64,000 nt of DNA from NCBI GenBank assembly GCA_000146465.1, contig CP001950.1; one strand, 5' to 3'. The translations under genes were made by a program, and so were the position numbers. How positions within the stretch are numbered: the first letter of the stretch is position 1; each line of letters opens with the position of its first letter. The notes below the pieces were generated by a model. That model had not been told where the DNA came from, made no database searches, and worked only from the letters and a program-made list of their open reading frames with translations. Of the stretch, positions 2,318 to 30,824 are shown one piece after another.

Positions 2318-3555
2318 AATTTTTGAAGAATGATTTAGACATCCCAGAAATAATGGCTAAAAGCTTGGAACAAGCACTTCTAAGAATATCCGAGTTGGAG
2401 GAAAAGATAGAAAACCAGCAGATAATAATCGACGCTCTTGTGGCTCGTATGAAAAAAATGGCAGGAAGCGATACGAGTATAGCTTTGGAGAAATGTTGCA
2501 AGGAGCAGGAGGAATGTAATCCTAGAAAGGAAATTTCCCAGGATATGGTACGCCTTGAATTTAGAAAAGAAGAAGGTAAAAAGGACCGAAAGGATGGTCT
2601 GTCTTTTGAGGAGGAGATTGAGGACTTGTTTAGACGGGATAAGGTTCCCAAACAATTCAAAGATACATTTACAATTGAGGCTCTTATATCTTACTCCAAA
2701 GAATCGCACAGCTTTTCATTAAATAGTAGAGTGGATGTGAAGATGAAGAAATCATTCCATACAAATGTTAAGCAGCAGATTGACAAGATTTCAAGACACA
2801 TTATGGTGAATCTAAATACATACGACCTCAACACTATCTGTTCAACACTCAATCTGATTTCGGGAGACCTTGAGTATCAGCATAAGCTGGTGACTGCTCA
2901 TGACATCATCCTTTTCATTGATGACTTTTCAAGGATACCGTTCATTATTTCCGCCTTATTCAACAACCAGGGAATCCGTAACGACGTGTTAGGGGAGACC
3001 ATAAAGGAAATCCTGCTTCACCAATGCATGGTTGATAGCGATATACATAAAAATCATCCCCATATTGTAAGCTATTATAACAAGATAGTCAGTAATTTCG
3101 AACTCCATCCGAAAGAAAAGTCCTTGAAGGACATATGTGCCAACCTAGTTGTAAGTTTCGATGTCTTCGAGAATGGAGCTTTCAATCCGATGATATTTCC
3201 AAGTATGTATTCTGTAAGGGCCCTATGCCATTATATGGACTGGGACTATGCATATAACGAGTTCATATGCACAGTGCTCTACCCGAGGCTGAGGGAAACT
3301 CGCGATCCCCTGTGTGCTATCTACATGTCTACTGTAGCATTGAATGCGATGAGAGTATTTGGAGCCATTGAAAGTGTAGAGCTTGTATTTGAAAAACTCA
3401 AAGAGTTTATGAATGATGCCTCGGACCTATCCATAACCATCTATCTATTTATTAAGCAAATCGATCCCCAGAGAGCCAATGTGTGGTATGAATCACAGGT
3501 GGAGAGGATAAACCATGTCGATGGAGAATATTTGAAAAATCTCCTATTGTATTAA
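2314..3555 (+). CDS. Hypothetical protein with an N-terminal coiled coil
   Basis: 413-codon ORF. The N-terminus has a heptad-like pattern (LEQALLRISELEEKIENQQIIIDALVARMKKM). No family motif recognised. Confidence 0.4.
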   Translation: MKFLKNDLDIPEIMAKSLEQALLRISELEEKIENQQIIIDALVARMKKMAGSDTSIALEKCCKEQEECNPRKEISQDMVRLEFRKEEGKKDRKDGLSFEEEIEDLFRRDKVPKQFKDTFTIEALISYSKESHSFSLNSRVDVKMKKSFHTNVKQQIDKISRHIMVNLNTYDLNTICSTLNLISGDLEYQHKLVTAHDIILFIDDFSRIPFIISALFNNQGIRNDVLGETIKEILLHQCMVDSDIHKNHPHIVSYYNKIVSNFELHPKEKSLKDICANLVVSFDVFENGAFNPMIFPSMYSVRALCHYMDWDYAYNEFICTVLYPRLRETRDPLCAIYMSTVALNAMRVFGAIESVELVFEKLKEFMNDASDLSITIYLFIKQIDPQRANVWYESQVERINHVDGEYLKNLLLY

Positions 3556-3612
3556 TGTGGAAATAAAGTTTTTGGAGTGACACAGAAGTGCGAAATTTTG
3601 TACCCTTAGAAG

Positions 3613-4530
3613 ATGAACAAAGAGGCCTTTGAACGGCTTCCTCAGGAAAAGAAGAAGATCATAGAAACAGCGTACTTCAGTGCTGTGAGGAAGGAAATAT
3701 CCGCGTCCCAGTTTTTTGGAGTTTGTAAAGAAGCACTAACCAAAGATCAGTTTGAAAGTCTGTTTTCAAACAACACGCCTAACAAGGAACAGCAAGAAGA
3801 AATGAAGACAGAGCATCTTCAAGATATTATACAGTACTCCGGAGTAGATTTGAAAGAAGAAGCGGAGCATATTGTCAGAGAGACAGAGACAAACATCAAC
3901 TTTGGAGAATACGAAGAAGAGGATCTAAACAATCAGATAGGAAGTCTGCTAAATATACCTCTATTCAGAGAGTTTGTAGCTAGGATTGGAAACTCAAGAA
4001 GAGTAGGGATTAGTGAAGAGTCGTTTTTTCTTCTTTTTCAAGTTGTTAAGAGGAAGATACTTGATATTGTGGAGAAGATGGAGGAATCTAGCAAATGGAG
4101 GGTTGAGTACAACCTGTCTGAATTTATAATAAGGATAAATAACGACCTTAGCAGACAGCTATGGTGCCTCGAACAGATAGAAAAGGCAGAACTTGAAAAG
4201 TTTACCATTCGAAAGGGAGAGGAGGAAGGAAGGAAGAAGGTTAAAAAAACGATTCAGGAAAGAGAGGATCTGGTGATTAAGAAAAGGTTGAGTAATACGG
4301 TTGCACTGGCGGCTCTTGGAATCCAACAAAAGTCTTGGATGAGTGCAGAAGACGTCCGGGTGAATGAAGAGAGTACAACCTTCAATTCGATCTACTCGCC
4401 GTTTGATGAAAAAGCATTGGAGAGGAAAGTTGTAAACAGAACCATAACGATGAAGGACTTTTTATATGTATTGGAAAGAGATAGGCGATATAACAAATCT
4501 ATTTTTACTATCCAACATTATTTCAGATAG
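3613..4530 (+). CDS. Hypothetical protein
   Basis: 305-codon ORF in the gene-dense region. No recognisable motif. Confidence 0.4.
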   Translation: MNKEAFERLPQEKKKIIETAYFSAVRKEISASQFFGVCKEALTKDQFESLFSNNTPNKEQQEEMKTEHLQDIIQYSGVDLKEEAEHIVRETETNINFGEYEEEDLNNQIGSLLNIPLFREFVARIGNSRRVGISEESFFLLFQVVKRKILDIVEKMEESSKWRVEYNLSEFIIRINNDLSRQLWCLEQIEKAELEKFTIRKGEEEGRKKVKKTIQEREDLVIKKRLSNTVALAALGIQQKSWMSAEDVRVNEESTTFNSIYSPFDEKALERKVVNRTITMKDFLYVLERDRRYNKSIFTIQHYFR

Positions 4531-4602
4531 GGATATTTTTGATTTCCACGTCTGTTCTTTGTTTTATACTTAATTATGGTGGGGATCTAAAAACAGCGAA
4601 GA

Positions 4603-4890
4603 ATGGACAAAGAGAGCCTCGAAAAGTTTGAAGCCCAGATCTCTGTCCTATCTAGCAAGGAGATTGAGAAGGTCATGAAAAGATTGAGCAAGGATGAGTT
4701 TGATGTGTTTATAGAGATTCTAGAGAGGCACAACATGGACTTGGATAGGGATCTTGAACATGGCAAGAATGAGCTCCTACAAAGATTAGAAAACCATAGG
4801 ATTCTTTTTGAGGATGCTTGGAATGCGATTCCCGACGGGGTTAGAAAGCATTTGACGGGATATTATCAATCCATGAATGATATCCTGTAG
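4603..4890 (+). CDS. Small hypothetical protein (95 aa)
   Basis: An ORF that fills the gap between neighbouring genes. Charged and helical. No motif. Confidence 0.3.
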   Translation: MDKESLEKFEAQISVLSSKEIEKVMKRLSKDEFDVFIEILERHNMDLDRDLEHGKNELLQRLENHRILFEDAWNAIPDGVRKHLTGYYQSMNDIL

Positions 4891-4981
4891 AAAGGGTTCT
4901 ATTCGCTTGATAATAGTAAATACCTTTTTACTTACGTTTTTGATATTTGGATGGATTAAAGCCCTTAACCTAAGCCTGCAT

Positions 4982-20258: not shown

Positions 20259-20285
20259 TTTCCATAGCCCATCCACAATGAAAAA

Positions 20286-20403
20286 GATTACAGCACCCGG
20301 GATTCCCGAGTGGTCTCCCGCCTCAGTACTATCCGGGCTCGCACAGGCTTAACTGCGGAGATCTGACGAGTTCCGGTGCTTTTCTGTGGATATGGCCGTA
20401 ATC
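20286..20403 (-). rRNA. 5S ribosomal RNA (118 nt), with a T5 terminator at 20281-20285
   Basis: The minus-strand sequence GATTACGGCCATATCCACAGAAAAGCACCGGAACTCGTCAGATCTCCGCAGTTAAGCC...GATAGTACTGAGGCGGGAGACCACTCGGGAATCCCGGGTGCTGTAATC matches eukaryotic 5S nearly block for block (UACGGCCAUACC...GUCUGAUCUCGGAAGCUAAGC...UAGUACU...GGGAGACCGCCUGGGAAUACCGGGUGCUGUAGGC). Helix I is a 9-bp closing stem (GAUUACGGC/GCUGUAAUC). A TTTTT run follows. Confidence 0.9.
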
Positions 20404-27435: not shown

Positions 27436-27858
27436 ATGTCAAGAACAAAACAGACAGCTTCAAAAGCACTTGGAGGAAAGGCTCCCAGAAAGGGCATGTC
27501 GATGAAGTCGGTCCCGTCGTCTGGATCTTCATCTGCCGTGCCTAAGGGGACGAGGTTCAAGGCTGGAGCTCTTGCCCTGAAGGAGATAAGAAAATACCAG
27601 AAGAGTACAGATCTGCTTATAAGGAAGAGGCCGTTCCAGAGGATGGTCCGGGAGTTATGCAAGAGCGGAGAAGGCATAAGATTCCAGGCTTCTGCAATTG
27701 TTGCCTTCCAGGAGGCTGTTGAAAATTTCCTTACAAATCTTGTGGAAGATGCCTATAGATGTGTTCTACATGCCAAAAGAGTTACTCTGATGCCGAAGGA
27801 TATTTGTCTTGTGTATAAGATAAAGTATGCGAACATTTTGTATGCAGCCCTTGACTGA
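27436..27858 (+). CDS. Histone H3 (divergent; could be the sole H3 or a variant)
   Basis: MSRTKQTASKALGGKAPRK...LKEIRKYQKSTDLLIRKRPFQRMVREL...LHAKRVTLMPKDI. The core is conserved. The tail residues equivalent to R8 and K27 are altered, and the C-terminus is extended. Confidence 0.85.
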   Translation: MSRTKQTASKALGGKAPRKGMSMKSVPSSGSSSAVPKGTRFKAGALALKEIRKYQKSTDLLIRKRPFQRMVRELCKSGEGIRFQASAIVAFQEAVENFLTNLVEDAYRCVLHAKRVTLMPKDICLVYKIKYANILYAALD

Positions 27859-27938: not shown

Positions 27939-28595
27939 ATGGGGGATGTTGTTTACATAGTCCATAGACAGCTTGAAAGAATACCAACCATTCCAGAGCA
28001 TGCGAGAACAGTTGACCTCCGCCGGAACAACATATCGGTTATGGCTTTGAACAAGGCAGAGTCTGTCGAGTATCTTGATCTATCAGACAACAGAATAAAG
28101 GTGATTTCCGACCTTGAAAATGTTCCGAATCTAAAGGTGTTGGATCTAAGCTACAACCTAATCACAGAAATTTCCATTCCCCGCATGGGTCTCTCGGAGC
28201 TGTATCTGATTTCTAATGACATTTCGACGATCCATGGGCTAGATCTTCCCTGCATCAAGAAGCTAGACATGGCCGTAAACGACATCTGTCAGATTGAAAA
28301 CCTCGAGAATTGTGCAACTCTAGAAGAGCTCTACCTCGGAAGCAACAGAATAAGAACAGTAGAAGGACTGTCCGAGCTCAAAGATTTGAAGGTATTGGAT
28401 CTTCAAAACAATGAACTTGAAGTGGTAGATTGCTCGGCAGTACCTTGTAATGTTGAAGTTCTTCTTCTTGGAGAGAACAGAAACCTTCAAATGATTGAGA
28501 ATCTCGAGTCATTAAAGAATCTCCGGATTCTGGGGCTGGAGAAGACAAGAGTGCCTTCTGATCTATTTGAGGGGTGTTTTACTGTTTGGCGCTAA
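27939..28595 (+). CDS. SDS22-like leucine-rich-repeat protein (PP1 regulatory subunit)
   Basis: Tandem 22-residue LRRs of the SDS22 class (LDLSDNRIKVISDLENVPNLKVLDLSYNLITEI...). Confidence 0.6.
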   Translation: MGDVVYIVHRQLERIPTIPEHARTVDLRRNNISVMALNKAESVEYLDLSDNRIKVISDLENVPNLKVLDLSYNLITEISIPRMGLSELYLISNDISTIHGLDLPCIKKLDMAVNDICQIENLENCATLEELYLGSNRIRTVEGLSELKDLKVLDLQNNELEVVDCSAVPCNVEVLLLGENRNLQMIENLESLKNLRILGLEKTRVPSDLFEGCFTVWR

Positions 28596-28812
28596 CTCTT
28601 GCGAGCCCTCAATTGGTAGGACTTGATTCTTCAACACATAGGCCATTGGATAAGGATACTGACAAAACATTACCCATGGAGGAATGCTTTGAAAAAGAAA
28701 ACAAGAAAGGATGGATTAGCATCCAGGATTCAATGAAAAGATCTAACGACTTTTGGCTCAAGGATGACGATGCAACCTCCTATCTGAACAGGTTTGTTGT
28801 GTAGCCAAGGAA

Positions 28813-29235
28813 TTGGTAATTAAAATGGTTTTCTATGAAGCATTCTTTGAGTACTTTTCCAATCTATCCTCCGATAAAGAAATTTTCCATCCAGAACTAT
28901 CCCATATGATTGGAGGCCGATCAATCCTGAAGTTTCCATTTGTTGGTATTAGAAAAGGTATTTCGGGGAATGCAGTTCCCGGACTTGCATTGTCAATGGC
29001 TGTCCTTAAGCCCATTAGTGTTGTGATGCCCAAGGTCCTCACAGATAACCTCTACAAGGGTGCAATGGCGCTTGCTACTCGCCCGTTTTGTGTTGGAGAC
29101 AAAATTAAAATCGACAAATATGATGGACTTGTGAGGGACATAAGCTTTTGGTATGTGACGCTGGAGAGAGGAAAAGGCTATGTGTTCATACCCATGTCCC
29201 ATGTATATAATACTGTTGTTGAGCTGTTCAAATAG
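28813..29235 (+). CDS. Truncated MscS-like mechanosensitive channel protein (pore helix plus beta domain only)
   Basis: Hydrophobic TM3-like helix (AVPGLALSMAVLKPISVVM). It is followed by the MscS beta-domain signature FCVGDKIKIDKYDGLVRDISFWYVTLERGKGYVFIPMSHVYNTVVELF (compare [36 protein letters not shown]). Confidence 0.55.
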   Translation: MVIKMVFYEAFFEYFSNLSSDKEIFHPELSHMIGGRSILKFPFVGIRKGISGNAVPGLALSMAVLKPISVVMPKVLTDNLYKGAMALATRPFCVGDKIKIDKYDGLVRDISFWYVTLERGKGYVFIPMSHVYNTVVELFK

Positions 29236-29297
29236 CTTCAATGATGCTTAAGATGCAAAGCTATCCAGATGGAAACAGGCATCATAATAAATAAGGT

Positions 29298-30824
29298 TTA
29301 TTCTCTTGTTCTTTCTCTGGGCTTGCACTTGACAATTGCATCGCACTTGATTATCATTTGTGCAGCCTCCGATGCAGCAGTAACAACACGATGCTTGATT
29401 CTAAAGCTGTCCACAACCCCAGACTCCTTCATACAACCAACACTTCCGCTACGGACATTTACTCCATAGCTTGTCTTACCAGAGTTGTGCTCGGCCCTCA
29501 GACTTGCCCTTATGCCTTCTCCATCATATCCTCCGTTGTCCGCGAGTATCTTTGGAATTTGCTGCAAAGCATTTGAAAATGCTAAAATGGCTTCACTTTC
29601 AATCCCAGGAACCTCCATGGCATAAGTGTTTAGGTCGACTGCCATTGCCATCTCACTGGACCCTCCTCCATAGACAACACGCGGATCCTGCTTTATCTTC
29701 GACAGAACACATAGTGCATCATGAACACTTCTTTCTGCCTCGTCCAGCATCTCTTTCGATGATCCACACAGGACAATGGTGCTTGCTCCACTCTTCACCC
29801 CGCTAAACTTTATTGCTCTTTCGTTTCCAATGTAAACATTCTTGACATTCTTGCAGGTCCCATAGCATGTTTCATCCATGCTGTCGAACGTACTCAGTAT
29901 CTTTCCTCCAAGCACATTGGAGAGTCTTTCAACCCCATCAAAGTCTGCATGTTCAATGGCTTGGATTCCCTTTATCTTCAGGAGCTGGAGAGGATAATCG
30001 TATATAAGCTGTCTATTAATAAACATATTTATCCCGTTCTGGGAAATCCGCTCCACCTTTTCTTGAATCTTTCCCTTCTCCACCTTCTCCATCTCCTCAA
30101 GCTCCCCCACAGAGCTGACATTGATCTTAGCCCCAAATATCTTAATTTTGTCTTGATCCATGCTGGTGTTGGCTATCAGGATCTTTGGATCGTTCACCTC
30201 CTCTATTCGGACGTCTTTCTTTAGAAGAAACCCATCGTCGAGATATGAGTCCTCGAGCTTCCCAGAACACTTGATCACCTGTACAAGATTCAAGTCGTTC
30301 CTACCCCCAAGGTTCTCAATAGCATTGACACAGATGTTGCAGAACTTCTCCAGATCATACTTCAGAACCTTCGAGCACAGTGTTGTCCTGGCAAGCTTGA
30401 CCAGATCCTCTTTCGATGGGTTGAAGCTAATTCTCTTCAGCACTTCAGAACACCTAGCCTGTGCCATTCTATATCCCTTAAGGATCTTCGTTGGATGCAT
30501 CTCCAGCTTGCTGGCCTCCTTGACAAGTAGACTTGCCAAAATTGCAACAGAAGTCGTCCCATCTCCTTCCTCCCAGTCCTGTCCAGTGCTGGAGTTGATC
30601 AATATCCTTGCAGACGGGCTGTCGATCATCAGGTTCTTGAGAATAAATGCCCCGTCGTTGGTAACATGGACGCTTTGTCCCTTCAGCATCTTAAGCATCC
30701 CCTTTGGTCCAAGGGTTGTCTTCAGTATGTCTCCCACAATATCCGTCCCTGCAAGAATCGTTCTCTTTGCATCATCGCCTTTTTCCTCGGTGGTTCCCAG
30801 ATTTGCATGGCTGAAGATGTTCAT
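29298..30824 (-). CDS. T-complex protein 1 (CCT/TRiC) subunit, beta-like. The track ORF runs to 30950; the probable start is ATG 30824.
   Basis: Group II chaperonin signatures TTLGPKGMLKML, VTNDGAFILK, and GDGTTSVAILASLL. Confidence 0.8.
   Translation of the reverse strand: MNIFSHANLGTTEEKGDDAKRTILAGTDIVGDILKTTLGPKGMLKMLKGQSVHVTNDGAFILKNLMIDSPSARILINSSTGQDWEEGDGTTSVAILASLLVKEASKLEMHPTKILKGYRMAQARCSEVLKRISFNPSKEDLVKLARTTLCSKVLKYDLEKFCNICVNAIENLGGRNDLNLVQVIKCSGKLEDSYLDDGFLLKKDVRIEEVNDPKILIANTSMDQDKIKIFGAKINVSSVGELEEMEKVEKGKIQEKVERISQNGINMFINRQLIYDYPLQLLKIKGIQAIEHADFDGVERLSNVLGGKILSTFDSMDETCYGTCKNVKNVYIGNERAIKFSGVKSGASTIVLCGSSKEMLDEAERSVHDALCVLSKIKQDPRVVYGGGSSEMAMAVDLNTYAMEVPGIESEAILAFSNALQQIPKILADNGGYDGEGIRASLRAEHNSGKTSYGVNVRSGSVGCMKESGVVDSFRIKHRVVTAASEAAQMIIKCDAIVKCKPRERTRE

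Follow-up and report, generated by a model that had tools for sequence, protein, structure and literature searches.

A window of 64,000 nucleotides from the Encephalitozoon intestinalis genome (GenBank assembly GCA_000146465.1, contig CP001950.1; all positions are those of the window) carries two adjacent open reading frames on the + strand, one of 76 aa (28574-28804) and one of 140 aa (28813-29235), the latter resembling the mechanosensitive channel MscS. A first-pass annotation read them as a possibly degraded or split gene for a bacterial-derived channel. The question is whether the locus holds one broken MscS gene or genes that are complete as they stand. The second answer is preferred, with a probability of about 85%: the locus comprises two independent, intact E. 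intestinalis genes, Eint_090480, which encodes a 109-aa MscS2, and Eint_090475, which encodes 42 aa, and the 140-aa and 76-aa frames are by-products of bacterial start rules. The region is identical in E. intestinalis CP075166.1 (6,330 of 6,330 nt, 0 mismatches).

Limits and integrity of the two genes

Both frames were produced by bacterial ORF rules, with a TTG start for the 140-aa frame and a GTG start for the 76-aa frame. They exist as first listed, but only under these rules, and their limits are wrong for a eukaryote. The 140-aa frame is an artefact of the bacterial start rules and the true product has 109 aa. The conserved, annotated MscS2 CDS (Eint_090480; 28906..29235, +; 109 aa plus stop) is nested in the 140-aa frame, and its protein (P0001) is 100% identical to Eint_090480. 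Its ATG at 28906 is common to the MscS2 orthologs (107-109 aa) of 13 related loci. The in-frame upstream extension of the longer frame (28813..28905, +) is a noncoding spacer with the MscS2 start signals AAATTT (28880-28885) and CCC (28901-28903), which are motifs defined by Peyretaillade 2009 (PMC2803860). A GAAATTT...ATCCCAT block directly 5′ of the ATG is conserved; transcripts of this genus have 5′ UTRs of less than 7 nt. Among the loci compared, codons 28813-28905 are open in E. intestinalis only, and in-frame stops are found 5′ of the ATG in 10 of 11 related loci. The N-terminal extension (136/140-aa versions) was rejected as coding sequence because it is closed in these 10 orthologous loci and contains the start signals. 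MscS2 is under purifying selection (dN/dS 0.08-0.13); with a ratio of about 0.1, the gene is not degraded.

The upstream neighbour (27939..28595, +) encodes a 218-aa LRR protein (Pfam LRR_4, E 1.8e-25) and is syntenic across all loci. The downstream, convergent neighbour (29298..30824, -; 508 aa as annotated) encodes a CCT/TCP-1 chaperonin subunit, identified from the ORF list and from PF00118 on the gene called at 3393-4919 of locus L025, which corresponds to 29298-30824 of the window. The convergent spacer between MscS2 and the chaperonin gene has 62 nt and contains AATAAA (29286..29291, +), found by pattern scan and likely to serve as the polyadenylation signal of MscS2. The gene order histone-LRR-sORF-MscS2-CCT-Nic96 is common to E. 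cuniculi, E. hellem, Ordospora and uncultured relatives. A scan for bacterial promoters and terminators gave nothing above chance and is not applicable to a eukaryote.

The last 42 codons of the 76-aa frame are its only conserved gene part. They correspond to Eint_090475 (28676..28804, +; MEECFEKENKKGWISIQDSMKRSNDFWLKDDDATSYLNRFVV), a separate annotated small gene whose acidic 42-aa product, with an invariant Trp, is 100% identical to protein P0011. The 5′ part of the frame, from its GTG start (28574..28675, +), is not a gene: its protein is not conserved between species, and it shares 22 nt with the end of the LRR gene, which stops at 28595, and extends over the intergenic spacer. The ATG of Eint_090475 is directly preceded by CCC (28673-28675). 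ATTAAA (28819..28824, +), located by pattern scan 15 nt past the stop, is its likely polyadenylation signal, and an A/T-rich signal lies 13-36 nt past the small-gene stop in most orthologous loci. An orthologous small ORF is found in 13 of 13 related loci. Its pN is well below its pS, and Eint_090475 is under purifying selection. The E. cuniculi ortholog, ECU09_0465, is transcribed, and its 5′ and 3′ ends were mapped by RACE (Belkorchia 2015, PMC4589312). That study reported no ortholog outside Encephalitozoon, whereas the present comparison also recovered orthologs from Ordospora and from several uncultured relatives.

The two frames could derive from a single MscS gene that a frameshift or a stop has cut in two, now either a pseudogene or in need of correction. 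Some features of the locus fit such a history: as listed, the frames are adjacent on the same strand and 8 nt apart, and the gap between the LRR gene and MscS2 (310-341 nt) is long for this genome. The C-terminus of the small protein (EPxxxNRF) also resembles E. coli MscS 181-189 (EPVRRNEFI; 9 columns, E 0.064, probability 0.9%), but this segment follows the beta domain in MscS and does not precede it. The match is the sole one to MscS and was treated as chance, and the small protein was rejected as an MscS remnant. Apart from it, the protein has no MscS similarity; it has no Pfam match at E up to 10. With GRAVY values of -0.4 to -1.35 and a net charge of -2 to -7, it is a strongly hydrophilic, acidic protein and thus unlike TM1-TM2. 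The small gene is in different frames relative to MscS2 in different species, 10 of 11 loci have in-frame stops between the two, and a GTAAGT-type splice donor is absent from every locus examined. Each of the two has a CCC start signal of its own, RACE mapped separate ends for the small gene's E. cuniculi ortholog, and purifying selection acts on both genes. A frameshift or an intron joining the two frames was therefore rejected, and with it the earlier suggestion of a degraded or split gene. A broken MscS gene can be set aside as wholly improbable, and the reading of two intact genes is retained below.

Two other identities of the small protein were considered. DSS1/Sem1 was rejected (hhalign probability 0.3%, with an approximate human DSS1 query). 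APC13 is an unsupported lead: its I-x-DL-[IM]...DD-x-W motif aligns (E 0.02, probability 2.3%, against a single approximate sequence), and APC13 is absent among the PDB matches of the small protein.

Architecture of MscS2 and its family

The MscS beta domain (residues 46-105 of 109; 29041..29220, +) is matched by Pfam PF00924 (MS_channel_2nd) above the curated cut-off (hmmscan, 33.6 bits vs 20.2, E 4.3e-8). A frame with an MscS beta domain and without TM1-TM2, as first proposed, is thus real and not due to chance. In hhalign, residues 43-103 of the MscS2 profile align with residues 112-173 of E. coli MscS (probability 91%, E 9.5e-7); the E. coli sequence used was validated against PDB 6rld. 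The AlphaFold model comprises two helices, four strands (residues 66-96, pLDDT 73-84) and a final helix. All its top Foldseek matches in the PDB are MscS-family channels (YbiO, MscS, MSL1, YnaI, T. cruzi MscS; probability 1.00). An NCBIfam search gave only a sub-threshold MscK match.

Upstream of the strands is a TM3b-like amphipathic helix (residues 43-58, KVLTDNLYKGAMALAT; 29032..29079, +), which is a helix in the AlphaFold model and is aligned to residues 112-127 of E. coli MscS (YggB, 286 aa; PDB 6rld, 2oau). As read from the hhalign alignment, N48 and G52 correspond to N117 and G121. The TM3b helix and the beta domain are homologous in the two proteins, and the RPF, G and IP fold positions are shared (P60/G64/G74/P96 in MscS2, P129/G133/G143/P166 in E. 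coli). Unlike these parts, about 60% of the E. coli protein is absent from MscS2. Only TM3b and the beta domain can be aligned with confidence to E. coli MscS.

The absence of the TM1-TM2 paddle, as first noted, is confirmed: just 42 residues precede TM3b and they include no further hydrophobic segments. The C-terminal alpha/beta domain, together with the beta-barrel, is also absent, as MscS2 stops 6 residues past the aligned beta domain. The pore-lining helix and the beta domain had both been described as retained. This stands for the beta domain (PF00924) and for TM3b (hhalign), but TM3a is placed by position and by a low-confidence AlphaFold helix. The candidate TM3a-like pore-lining hydrophobic helix (residues 23-39; 28972..29022, +) lies outside the confident hhalign region and contains Lys35 and Pro36; pLDDT is below 50 at residues 1-26 and 34-38. 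Only 7 of 14 close MscS2 orthologs reach 1.6 or more in a 19-residue Kyte-Doolittle window. Because of this marginal hydrophobicity, of Lys35 and Pro36, and of the low-confidence model, membrane insertion of the N-terminal helix and its role in a pore are given as candidate properties only.

Eint_090480 belongs to the bacterial-like MscS2 family of microsporidia, which is drastically shortened; Nakjang et al. 2013 (PMC3879972) defined the family, and a structural study followed in 2024 (PMC11262690). By sequence and synteny, Eint_090480 is orthologous to ECU09_0470 of E. cuniculi, the MscS2 already published: the proteins are 76% identical and their genes are syntenic. The identity proposed for the gene, that of an MscS-family member, is upheld by this relationship and by the PF00924 match. 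MscS2 was described as single-copy, bacterial-like and drastically reduced, and ECU09_0470 as expressed (PMC3879972). MscS2 is reported to be the single bacterial-type MscS relative carried by all microsporidia, and one MscS2-like region was found by a six-frame HMM scan of the window. In Berg 2024 (PMC11262690), the E. intestinalis protein is one of 35 aligned sequences. It is already described, and it is an ordinary, annotated family member.

The gene had also been singled out as even shorter than a canonical MscS. This is not a special feature: 109 aa is the median length of 49 MscS2-like matches, and lengths down to 73 aa are published (Berg 2024, PMC11262690). All 49 matches stop within a few residues past the beta domain. 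Eint_090480 can be aligned from end to end to 29 further MscS2 proteins, all of which stop at the same position, and its architecture is the reduced one (about 73-140 aa, ending just past the beta domain). Like ECU09_0470 and the MscS2 of Nematocida displodere, it has a short N-terminus, a TM3b-like helix and a beta domain, and ends a few residues later; it differs from the known microsporidian MscS2 in nothing of substance. An N-terminal LxFPF motif is found in MscS2 of the Encephalitozoon/Ordospora clade and is not obvious in distant members.

Possible functions of MscS2 and of its small neighbour

Expression, heptamer formation and membrane location of MscS2 in E. intestinalis would follow by transfer from orthologs. 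A truncated N. displodere MscS2, studied by low-resolution cryo-EM, forms a heptamer (8.3 Å; Berg 2024, PMC11262690) that keeps the TM3-like helix and the beta domain. By analogy, seven E. intestinalis subunits may form a ring that surrounds a wide central opening and is held together by the beta domain and TM3b, and the N-terminal helix, one per subunit, may anchor the ring to the membrane or line a pore. Since neither the tension-sensing paddle nor the ion-filtering vestibule is present, such a pore would probably be a poorly selective conduit, gated differently or largely constitutive. Speaking against a membrane pore, forms of E. coli MscS from which both C-terminal domains had been removed failed to insert into membranes (cited in Berg 2024, PMC11262690). 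In E. cuniculi, ECU09_0470 is detected by RNA-seq and its expression falls from 24 h to 48 h after infection (PMC3879972, PMC11262690); by the same kind of transfer, MscS2 would probably be used in early or proliferative stages.

A different function can be envisaged, in which MscS2 is no longer a membrane channel and the beta-domain ring is re-used as a soluble or peripheral heptameric scaffold. The Kyte-Doolittle threshold is reached in just the 7 of 14 close orthologs given above and in a handful of more distant MscS2-like matches. Transmembrane predictors were inconclusive in Berg 2024 (PMC11262690), and membrane binding was called unclear by Nakjang 2013 (PMC3879972). The loss of the sensor paddle and of the vestibule fits a scaffold too, and at least 4 canonical MscS1 genes per genome could cover mechanosensation (PMC3879972). 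Against a scaffold, the TM3b-like helix, which is needed for gating of E. coli MscS, is conserved, including its N and G positions, and at the N-terminus the Encephalitozoon clade conserves the LxFPF motif with a hydrophobic stretch after it. The N. displodere protein also required detergent-type handling, and its heptamers associate via their truncated hydrophobic ends (PMC11262690). A scaffold is rated as a rather doubtful option with a real chance of being correct, and the membrane conduit described above is kept as the working description.

The small gene and MscS2 might form a functional two-gene unit, co-regulated, in which the minimal channel would have the acidic 42-aa peptide, with its Trp, as partner or regulator. 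In 13 of 13 loci of the Encephalitozoon/Ordospora clade, MscS2 is immediately preceded by the small ORF, in the same orientation; the spacer between them has 75-114 nt in ten measured loci and 293 nt in an additional one (L014). Two divergent lineages (L011, L013) have the pair in inverted orientation to its CCT and LRR neighbours, as a single block, with the genes still together. However, gene order is almost fully conserved across this clade, so that adjacency carries little weight, and the inversion is one event whose prior odds of including both genes are roughly even. A distant microsporidian MscS2 locus (L023, encoding an 87-aa MscS2; a single locus from a subgroup query) has no small ORF upstream, and a polyadenylation-like signal follows the small gene while MscS2 has its own start signals. 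A functional unit is therefore considered unlikely. Its more specific form is considered very unlikely: Eint_090475 would be a dedicated partner of MscS2 in Encephalitozoon and Ordospora, for example a cytoplasmic plug or regulator replacing the lost vestibule, and the pair would be kept by selection. If this were true, selection on the unit would have kept adjacency and co-orientation through the inversion. The reading preferred here remains that of two independent genes.

As a separate observation, inversion of the pair leaves the small gene on the upstream side of MscS2.

Origin and nearest relatives outside microsporidia

A bacterial origin of MscS2 is suggested by a published CAT60 phylogeny of this short domain, in which MscS2 is placed with bacteria (Nakjang 2013, PMC3879972). 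In a neighbour-joining analysis of 67 columns, Kimura distances were saturated (1.5-1.9) and no group was clearly nearest. Identification of a bacterial donor was dropped for these reasons. The high rank of Elusimicrobiota tandem proteins, obtained with an Encephalitozoon-only profile, was lost under a broader MscS2 profile.

The best-scoring non-microsporidian matches to the MscS2 profile are prokaryotic mini-MscS (150-185 aa; e.g. Aquifex MAG HHJ64058.1, Ca. Muiribacterium PLX17285.1); the best PDB sequence match (E 2.6e-4) also belongs to this group. Where top non-microsporidian matches carry a taxon name, it is that of a bacterium or archaeon (Aquifex MAG, Muiribacterium, Pseudomonadota, archaea, Elusimicrobiota). 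The mini-MscS, like MscS2, end right after the beta domain, as do PDB 9seh/9sdg (a 171-aa small-conductance mechanosensitive channel) and T. cruzi MscS (PDB 9bgq). In contrast to MscS2, the members of this group have two to three clearly hydrophobic TM helices (median of 3 Kyte-Doolittle segments, vs 0-1 in MscS2). No paper was found for PDB entries 9seh, 9sdb, 9sdg and 9sed.

Descent of MscS2 from an older eukaryotic, organelle-type mini-MscS, and not from a direct bacterial transfer into the microsporidian ancestor, was weighed against these data. Three proteins (P0066, P0077 and P0097; 79-231 aa) are among the best non-microsporidian matches to the broad MscS2 profile. Their IPS(A/S)xVYS...V ending resembles the microsporidian IPTSxVYNxVIE, the N-termini of P0066 and P0077 resemble organelle presequences, and short MscS-like channels are also found in protists, as in T. 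cruzi. However, P0066 and P0077 come from short metagenome contigs without a taxon name, the other top matches with a taxon name are bacterial or archaeal, and the published phylogeny puts MscS2 with bacteria; the saturated distances favour neither origin. This descent is accordingly given a low probability.

The outcome for the locus is mostly negative: the gene is intact, unsplit and 109 aa long, and the ORF next to it is a small gene in its own right, already known. Two additions of modest weight are made. ECU09_0465/Eint_090475 is not restricted to Encephalitozoon and travels with MscS2, and the nearest non-microsporidian relatives of MscS2 are vestibule-less prokaryotic mini-MscS. Of the known MscS-like proteins, MscS2 is the most compact one, of bacterial type and kept in every microsporidian genome; as its nearest relatives already lack the C-terminal vestibule, part of its extreme reduction may predate the transfer.

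Identity and length of the MscS2 gene

The protein read from ATG 28906 to 29235 matches the annotated 109-aa Eint_090480 of Encephalitozoon intestinalis at every residue (100% identity). Its identity to the 108-aa E. cuniculi protein is 76%, and to orthologs from E. hellem, Ordospora and uncultured relatives 61-79%. Nakjang et al. 2013 described the E. cuniculi ortholog, ECU09_0470, as "MscS2": bacterial-like, single-copy, "extremely reduced in length", its acquisition being placed in the last common microsporidian ancestor (PMC3879972). The E. intestinalis protein is also one of the 35 MscS2 proteins aligned by Berg et al. 2024, who concluded that MscS2 is reduced to a TM3-like helix and the beta domain (PMC11262690). 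The gene is therefore already known, as an unremarkable MscS2 of microsporidia that has been both annotated and published.

The first-pass annotation assigned the family correctly, including the lack of TM1-TM2; TM3b and the beta domain are retained. The translation of its 140-aa ORF matches Pfam PF00924 (MS_channel_2nd, MscS beta domain) with E 4.3e-8 and 33.6 bits (curated cut-off, 20.2 bits), and its 76-aa upstream ORF has no Pfam match. The PF00924 search, which the annotation itself had put forward as able to refute the assignment, therefore supports it. When 30 microsporidian homologs are combined into a profile, hhalign aligns it to TM3b and the beta domain of E. coli MscS (residues 112-173; sequence identical to PDB 6rld) with a probability of 91% and E 9.5e-7. 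The AlphaFold model of MscS2 (input alignment of 8 sequences; mean pLDDT 63.6, beta domain 73-84) comprises helices 23-39 and 43-58, four strands within 66-96 and a final helix 97-108. Foldseek of this model against PDB returned only MscS-family channels (YbiO, MscS, MSL1, YnaI, T. cruzi MscS), with probability 1.00.

Both proposed ORFs are present, only under bacterial ORF rules and with wrong boundaries: 28813-29235 begins at TTG, and 28574-28804 has a GTG start that lies inside the last part of the upstream leucine-rich-repeat (LRR) gene. The 27-31 codons preceding ATG 28906 are open in E. intestinalis only, the same frame carrying stop codons in 10 of 11 orthologous loci. Inside this stretch, directly 5' of the ATG, DNA alignment reveals a conserved GAAATTT...ATCCCAT block, with an AAATTT signal at 28880 and a CCC signal at 28901. 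Such AAATTT-like and CCC-like signals sit immediately 5' of Encephalitozoon start codons, and 5' UTRs in the genus are shorter than 7 nt (Peyretaillade et al. 2009, PMC2803860). Given these stops and start signals, the product is 109 aa, not 140. Nor is this length unusual: 109 aa is the median length of the 49 MscS2-like hits found by an exhaustive HMM search over 1.84 billion representatives, every one of which stops a few residues past the beta domain.

Two adjacent genes in a conserved locus

With the locus at its centre, a stretch of 6,330 bases shows 0 mismatches to E. intestinalis CP075166.1 (73754-80083) and is also identical in a second E. intestinalis assembly. The flanking genes are eukaryotic: a histone H3-type gene (27436-27858) and the LRR gene (27939-28595) upstream, and a CCT chaperonin subunit gene (29298-30824) convergent to MscS2. 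The order histone-LRR-small ORF-MscS2-CCT-Nic96 is common to E. intestinalis, E. cuniculi, E. hellem, Ordospora and uncultured relatives. Gene calls on identical E. intestinalis DNA disagree between GCA_051312815.1 and GCA_024399295.1: only one of the two includes the small gene, and they give the histone H3-type gene different lengths, 120 aa and 140 aa. Elsewhere in the window, a 5S ribosomal RNA gene lies at 20285-20403 on the (-) strand (Rfam RF00001, 97.6 bits); no other Rfam family and no tRNA gene was found there.

MscS2 had been suspected to be degraded or split. Nei-Gojobori estimates give it a dN/dS of 0.08-0.13 between Encephalitozoon species, at odds with degradation. The 76-aa ORF contains a separate conserved gene of 42 codons (ATG 28676-28804), annotated Eint_090475. 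It belongs to a set of small CDSs that Belkorchia et al. 2015 first predicted and then validated; ECU09_0465, the ortholog in E. cuniculi, is transcribed, and RACE located its 5' and 3' ends (PMC4589312). Eint_090475 has its own signals, with CCC at 28673 and ATTAAA 15 nt past the stop. Its non-synonymous divergence is well under the synonymous one (dN/dS 0.19-0.29 where computable). Its frame relative to MscS2 varies by species (in-frame in E. cuniculi, shifted in the others), and GTAAGT-type splice donors are absent from all loci examined. The locus holds two genes rather than the pieces of one; the split-gene suggestion, like the ORF boundaries, was wrong.

The small protein has no match in Pfam, NCBIfam or PDB. 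Its hydrophilic, acidic character (GRAVY -0.4 to -1.35, net charge -2 to -7) rules out a remnant of the TM1-TM2 paddle. Comparisons with DSS1, APC13 and MscS gave nothing significant. The family consensus reads ...[KS]D-x-FW-x-x-DDD-E-P-x-x-x-NRF[VI]-x, in which the Trp is invariant and the DDD-EP-xxx-NRF tail conserved. The EP-xxx-NRF-V/I part resembles EPVRRNEFI, residues 181-189 of E. coli MscS, which directly follow the beta domain (hhalign E 0.064, 9 columns); this likeness is probably due to chance.

Belkorchia et al. 2015 detected no ECU09_0465 ortholog in organisms other than Encephalitozoon (PMC4589312). Orthologs do occur: Ordospora has one, as does each of the related uncultured lineages examined (13 loci), and in every case the gene sits immediately 5' of MscS2 on the same strand. 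The orthologs lie at about 2760-2890 in the O. colligata locus (L005) and, in further loci, at 2752-2886 (L009), 1021-1152 (L010), 2760-2891 (L012), 2805-2924 (L011), 2809-2925 (L013) and 277-402 (L014). The O. colligata protein ends (about 2860-2890) in ...KQEFKIDLLYE; the related Ordospora protein P0016 ends in ...KQEYNSRFIL and fits the consensus. The discrepancy could stem from a frameshift, from strain variation or from misassembly of one of the two.

In two divergent lineages (L011, 2805-3330; L013, 2809-3324; JGI metagenomes 3300073837 and 3300073835), the two genes have been inverted together between CCT and LRR and are still adjacent and co-oriented. This hints at a link between the two genes, weakly, because gene order hardly varies across the clade and one event accounts for the inversion. 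At the one distant MscS2 locus recovered (L023; 87 aa, 2450-2713 of the 292-kb JGI metagenome contig Ga0308170_10000044, from a distant microsporidian), no small acidic ORF lies upstream, and the preceding gene is transcribed divergently.

Relatives and origin of MscS2

Every non-microsporidian match to MscS2 profiles that bears a taxon name comes from a prokaryote. The Encephalitozoon-clade profile scores best against proteins of 400-840 aa with two TM3-plus-beta-domain modules each, traced to Elusimicrobiota genomes. This tandem family (MAG contigs L015-L022; P0030, P0032, P0034, P0039 and others) has a signal-peptide-like N-terminus and modules without C-terminal vestibule domains; P0037, a listed tandem hit, has three matched stretches instead of two. 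The best matches to the broader profile are "mini-MscS" proteins of ~120-230 aa ending <=21 residues past the beta domain; named sources are an Aquifex MAG, Ca. Muiribacterium, Pseudomonadota MAGs and archaea. By sequence, the closest PDB entry is the 171-aa channel 9seh. PDB 9seh, 9sed, 9sdb and 9sdg are recent entries for a 171-aa "small-conductance mechanosensitive channel" that likewise ends at the beta domain; a literature search found no paper describing them.

C-terminal domains are lacking in 84 of the 113 non-MscS2-like hits (46 short and 38 tandem forms). On score ranking only, this suggests that vestibule loss may predate transfer and that microsporidia may mainly have removed TM1-TM2. 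A neighbour-joining tree resolved no bacterial donor over 67 shared columns, at which Kimura distances are saturated (1.5-1.9). A non-bacterial route of MscS2 into microsporidia keeps a small probability, since three of the top matches, on short ENA/Logan contigs, carry no taxon name (P0066, 231 aa; P0077, 203 aa; P0097, 79 aa; a mini-MscS family ending just past the beta domain) and the N-termini of P0066 and P0077 look like organelle-targeting presequences.

A candidate minimal conduit

Compared with E. coli MscS, MscS2 has TM3b and the beta domain and lacks TM1-TM2 and the entire C-terminal vestibule. The fold-shaping positions P60, G64, G74 and P96 are kept (P129, G133, G143 and P166 in E. 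coli). MscS2 of N. displodere still assembles as a heptameric ring, resolved at 8.3 Å (Berg et al. 2024, PMC11262690). By analogy with that structure, the beta domain and TM3b would hold seven subunits together in a ring around a central opening of ~26 Å. The candidate membrane-spanning, pore-lining segment (residues 23-41, AVPGLALSMAVLKPISVVM) contains Lys and Pro, is modelled at low confidence and is hydrophobic enough to reach a Kyte-Doolittle threshold in just half of the close orthologs (7 of 14). The main mechanistic rival, a ring repurposed for a non-channel role, appears rather unlikely. On the best reading, MscS2 is most likely a minimal heptameric conduit, weakly selective and gated otherwise than MscS. 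ECU09_0470 is expressed, with a significant drop from 24 h to 48 h after infection (PMC3879972). The conduit would be employed in early or proliferative stages.
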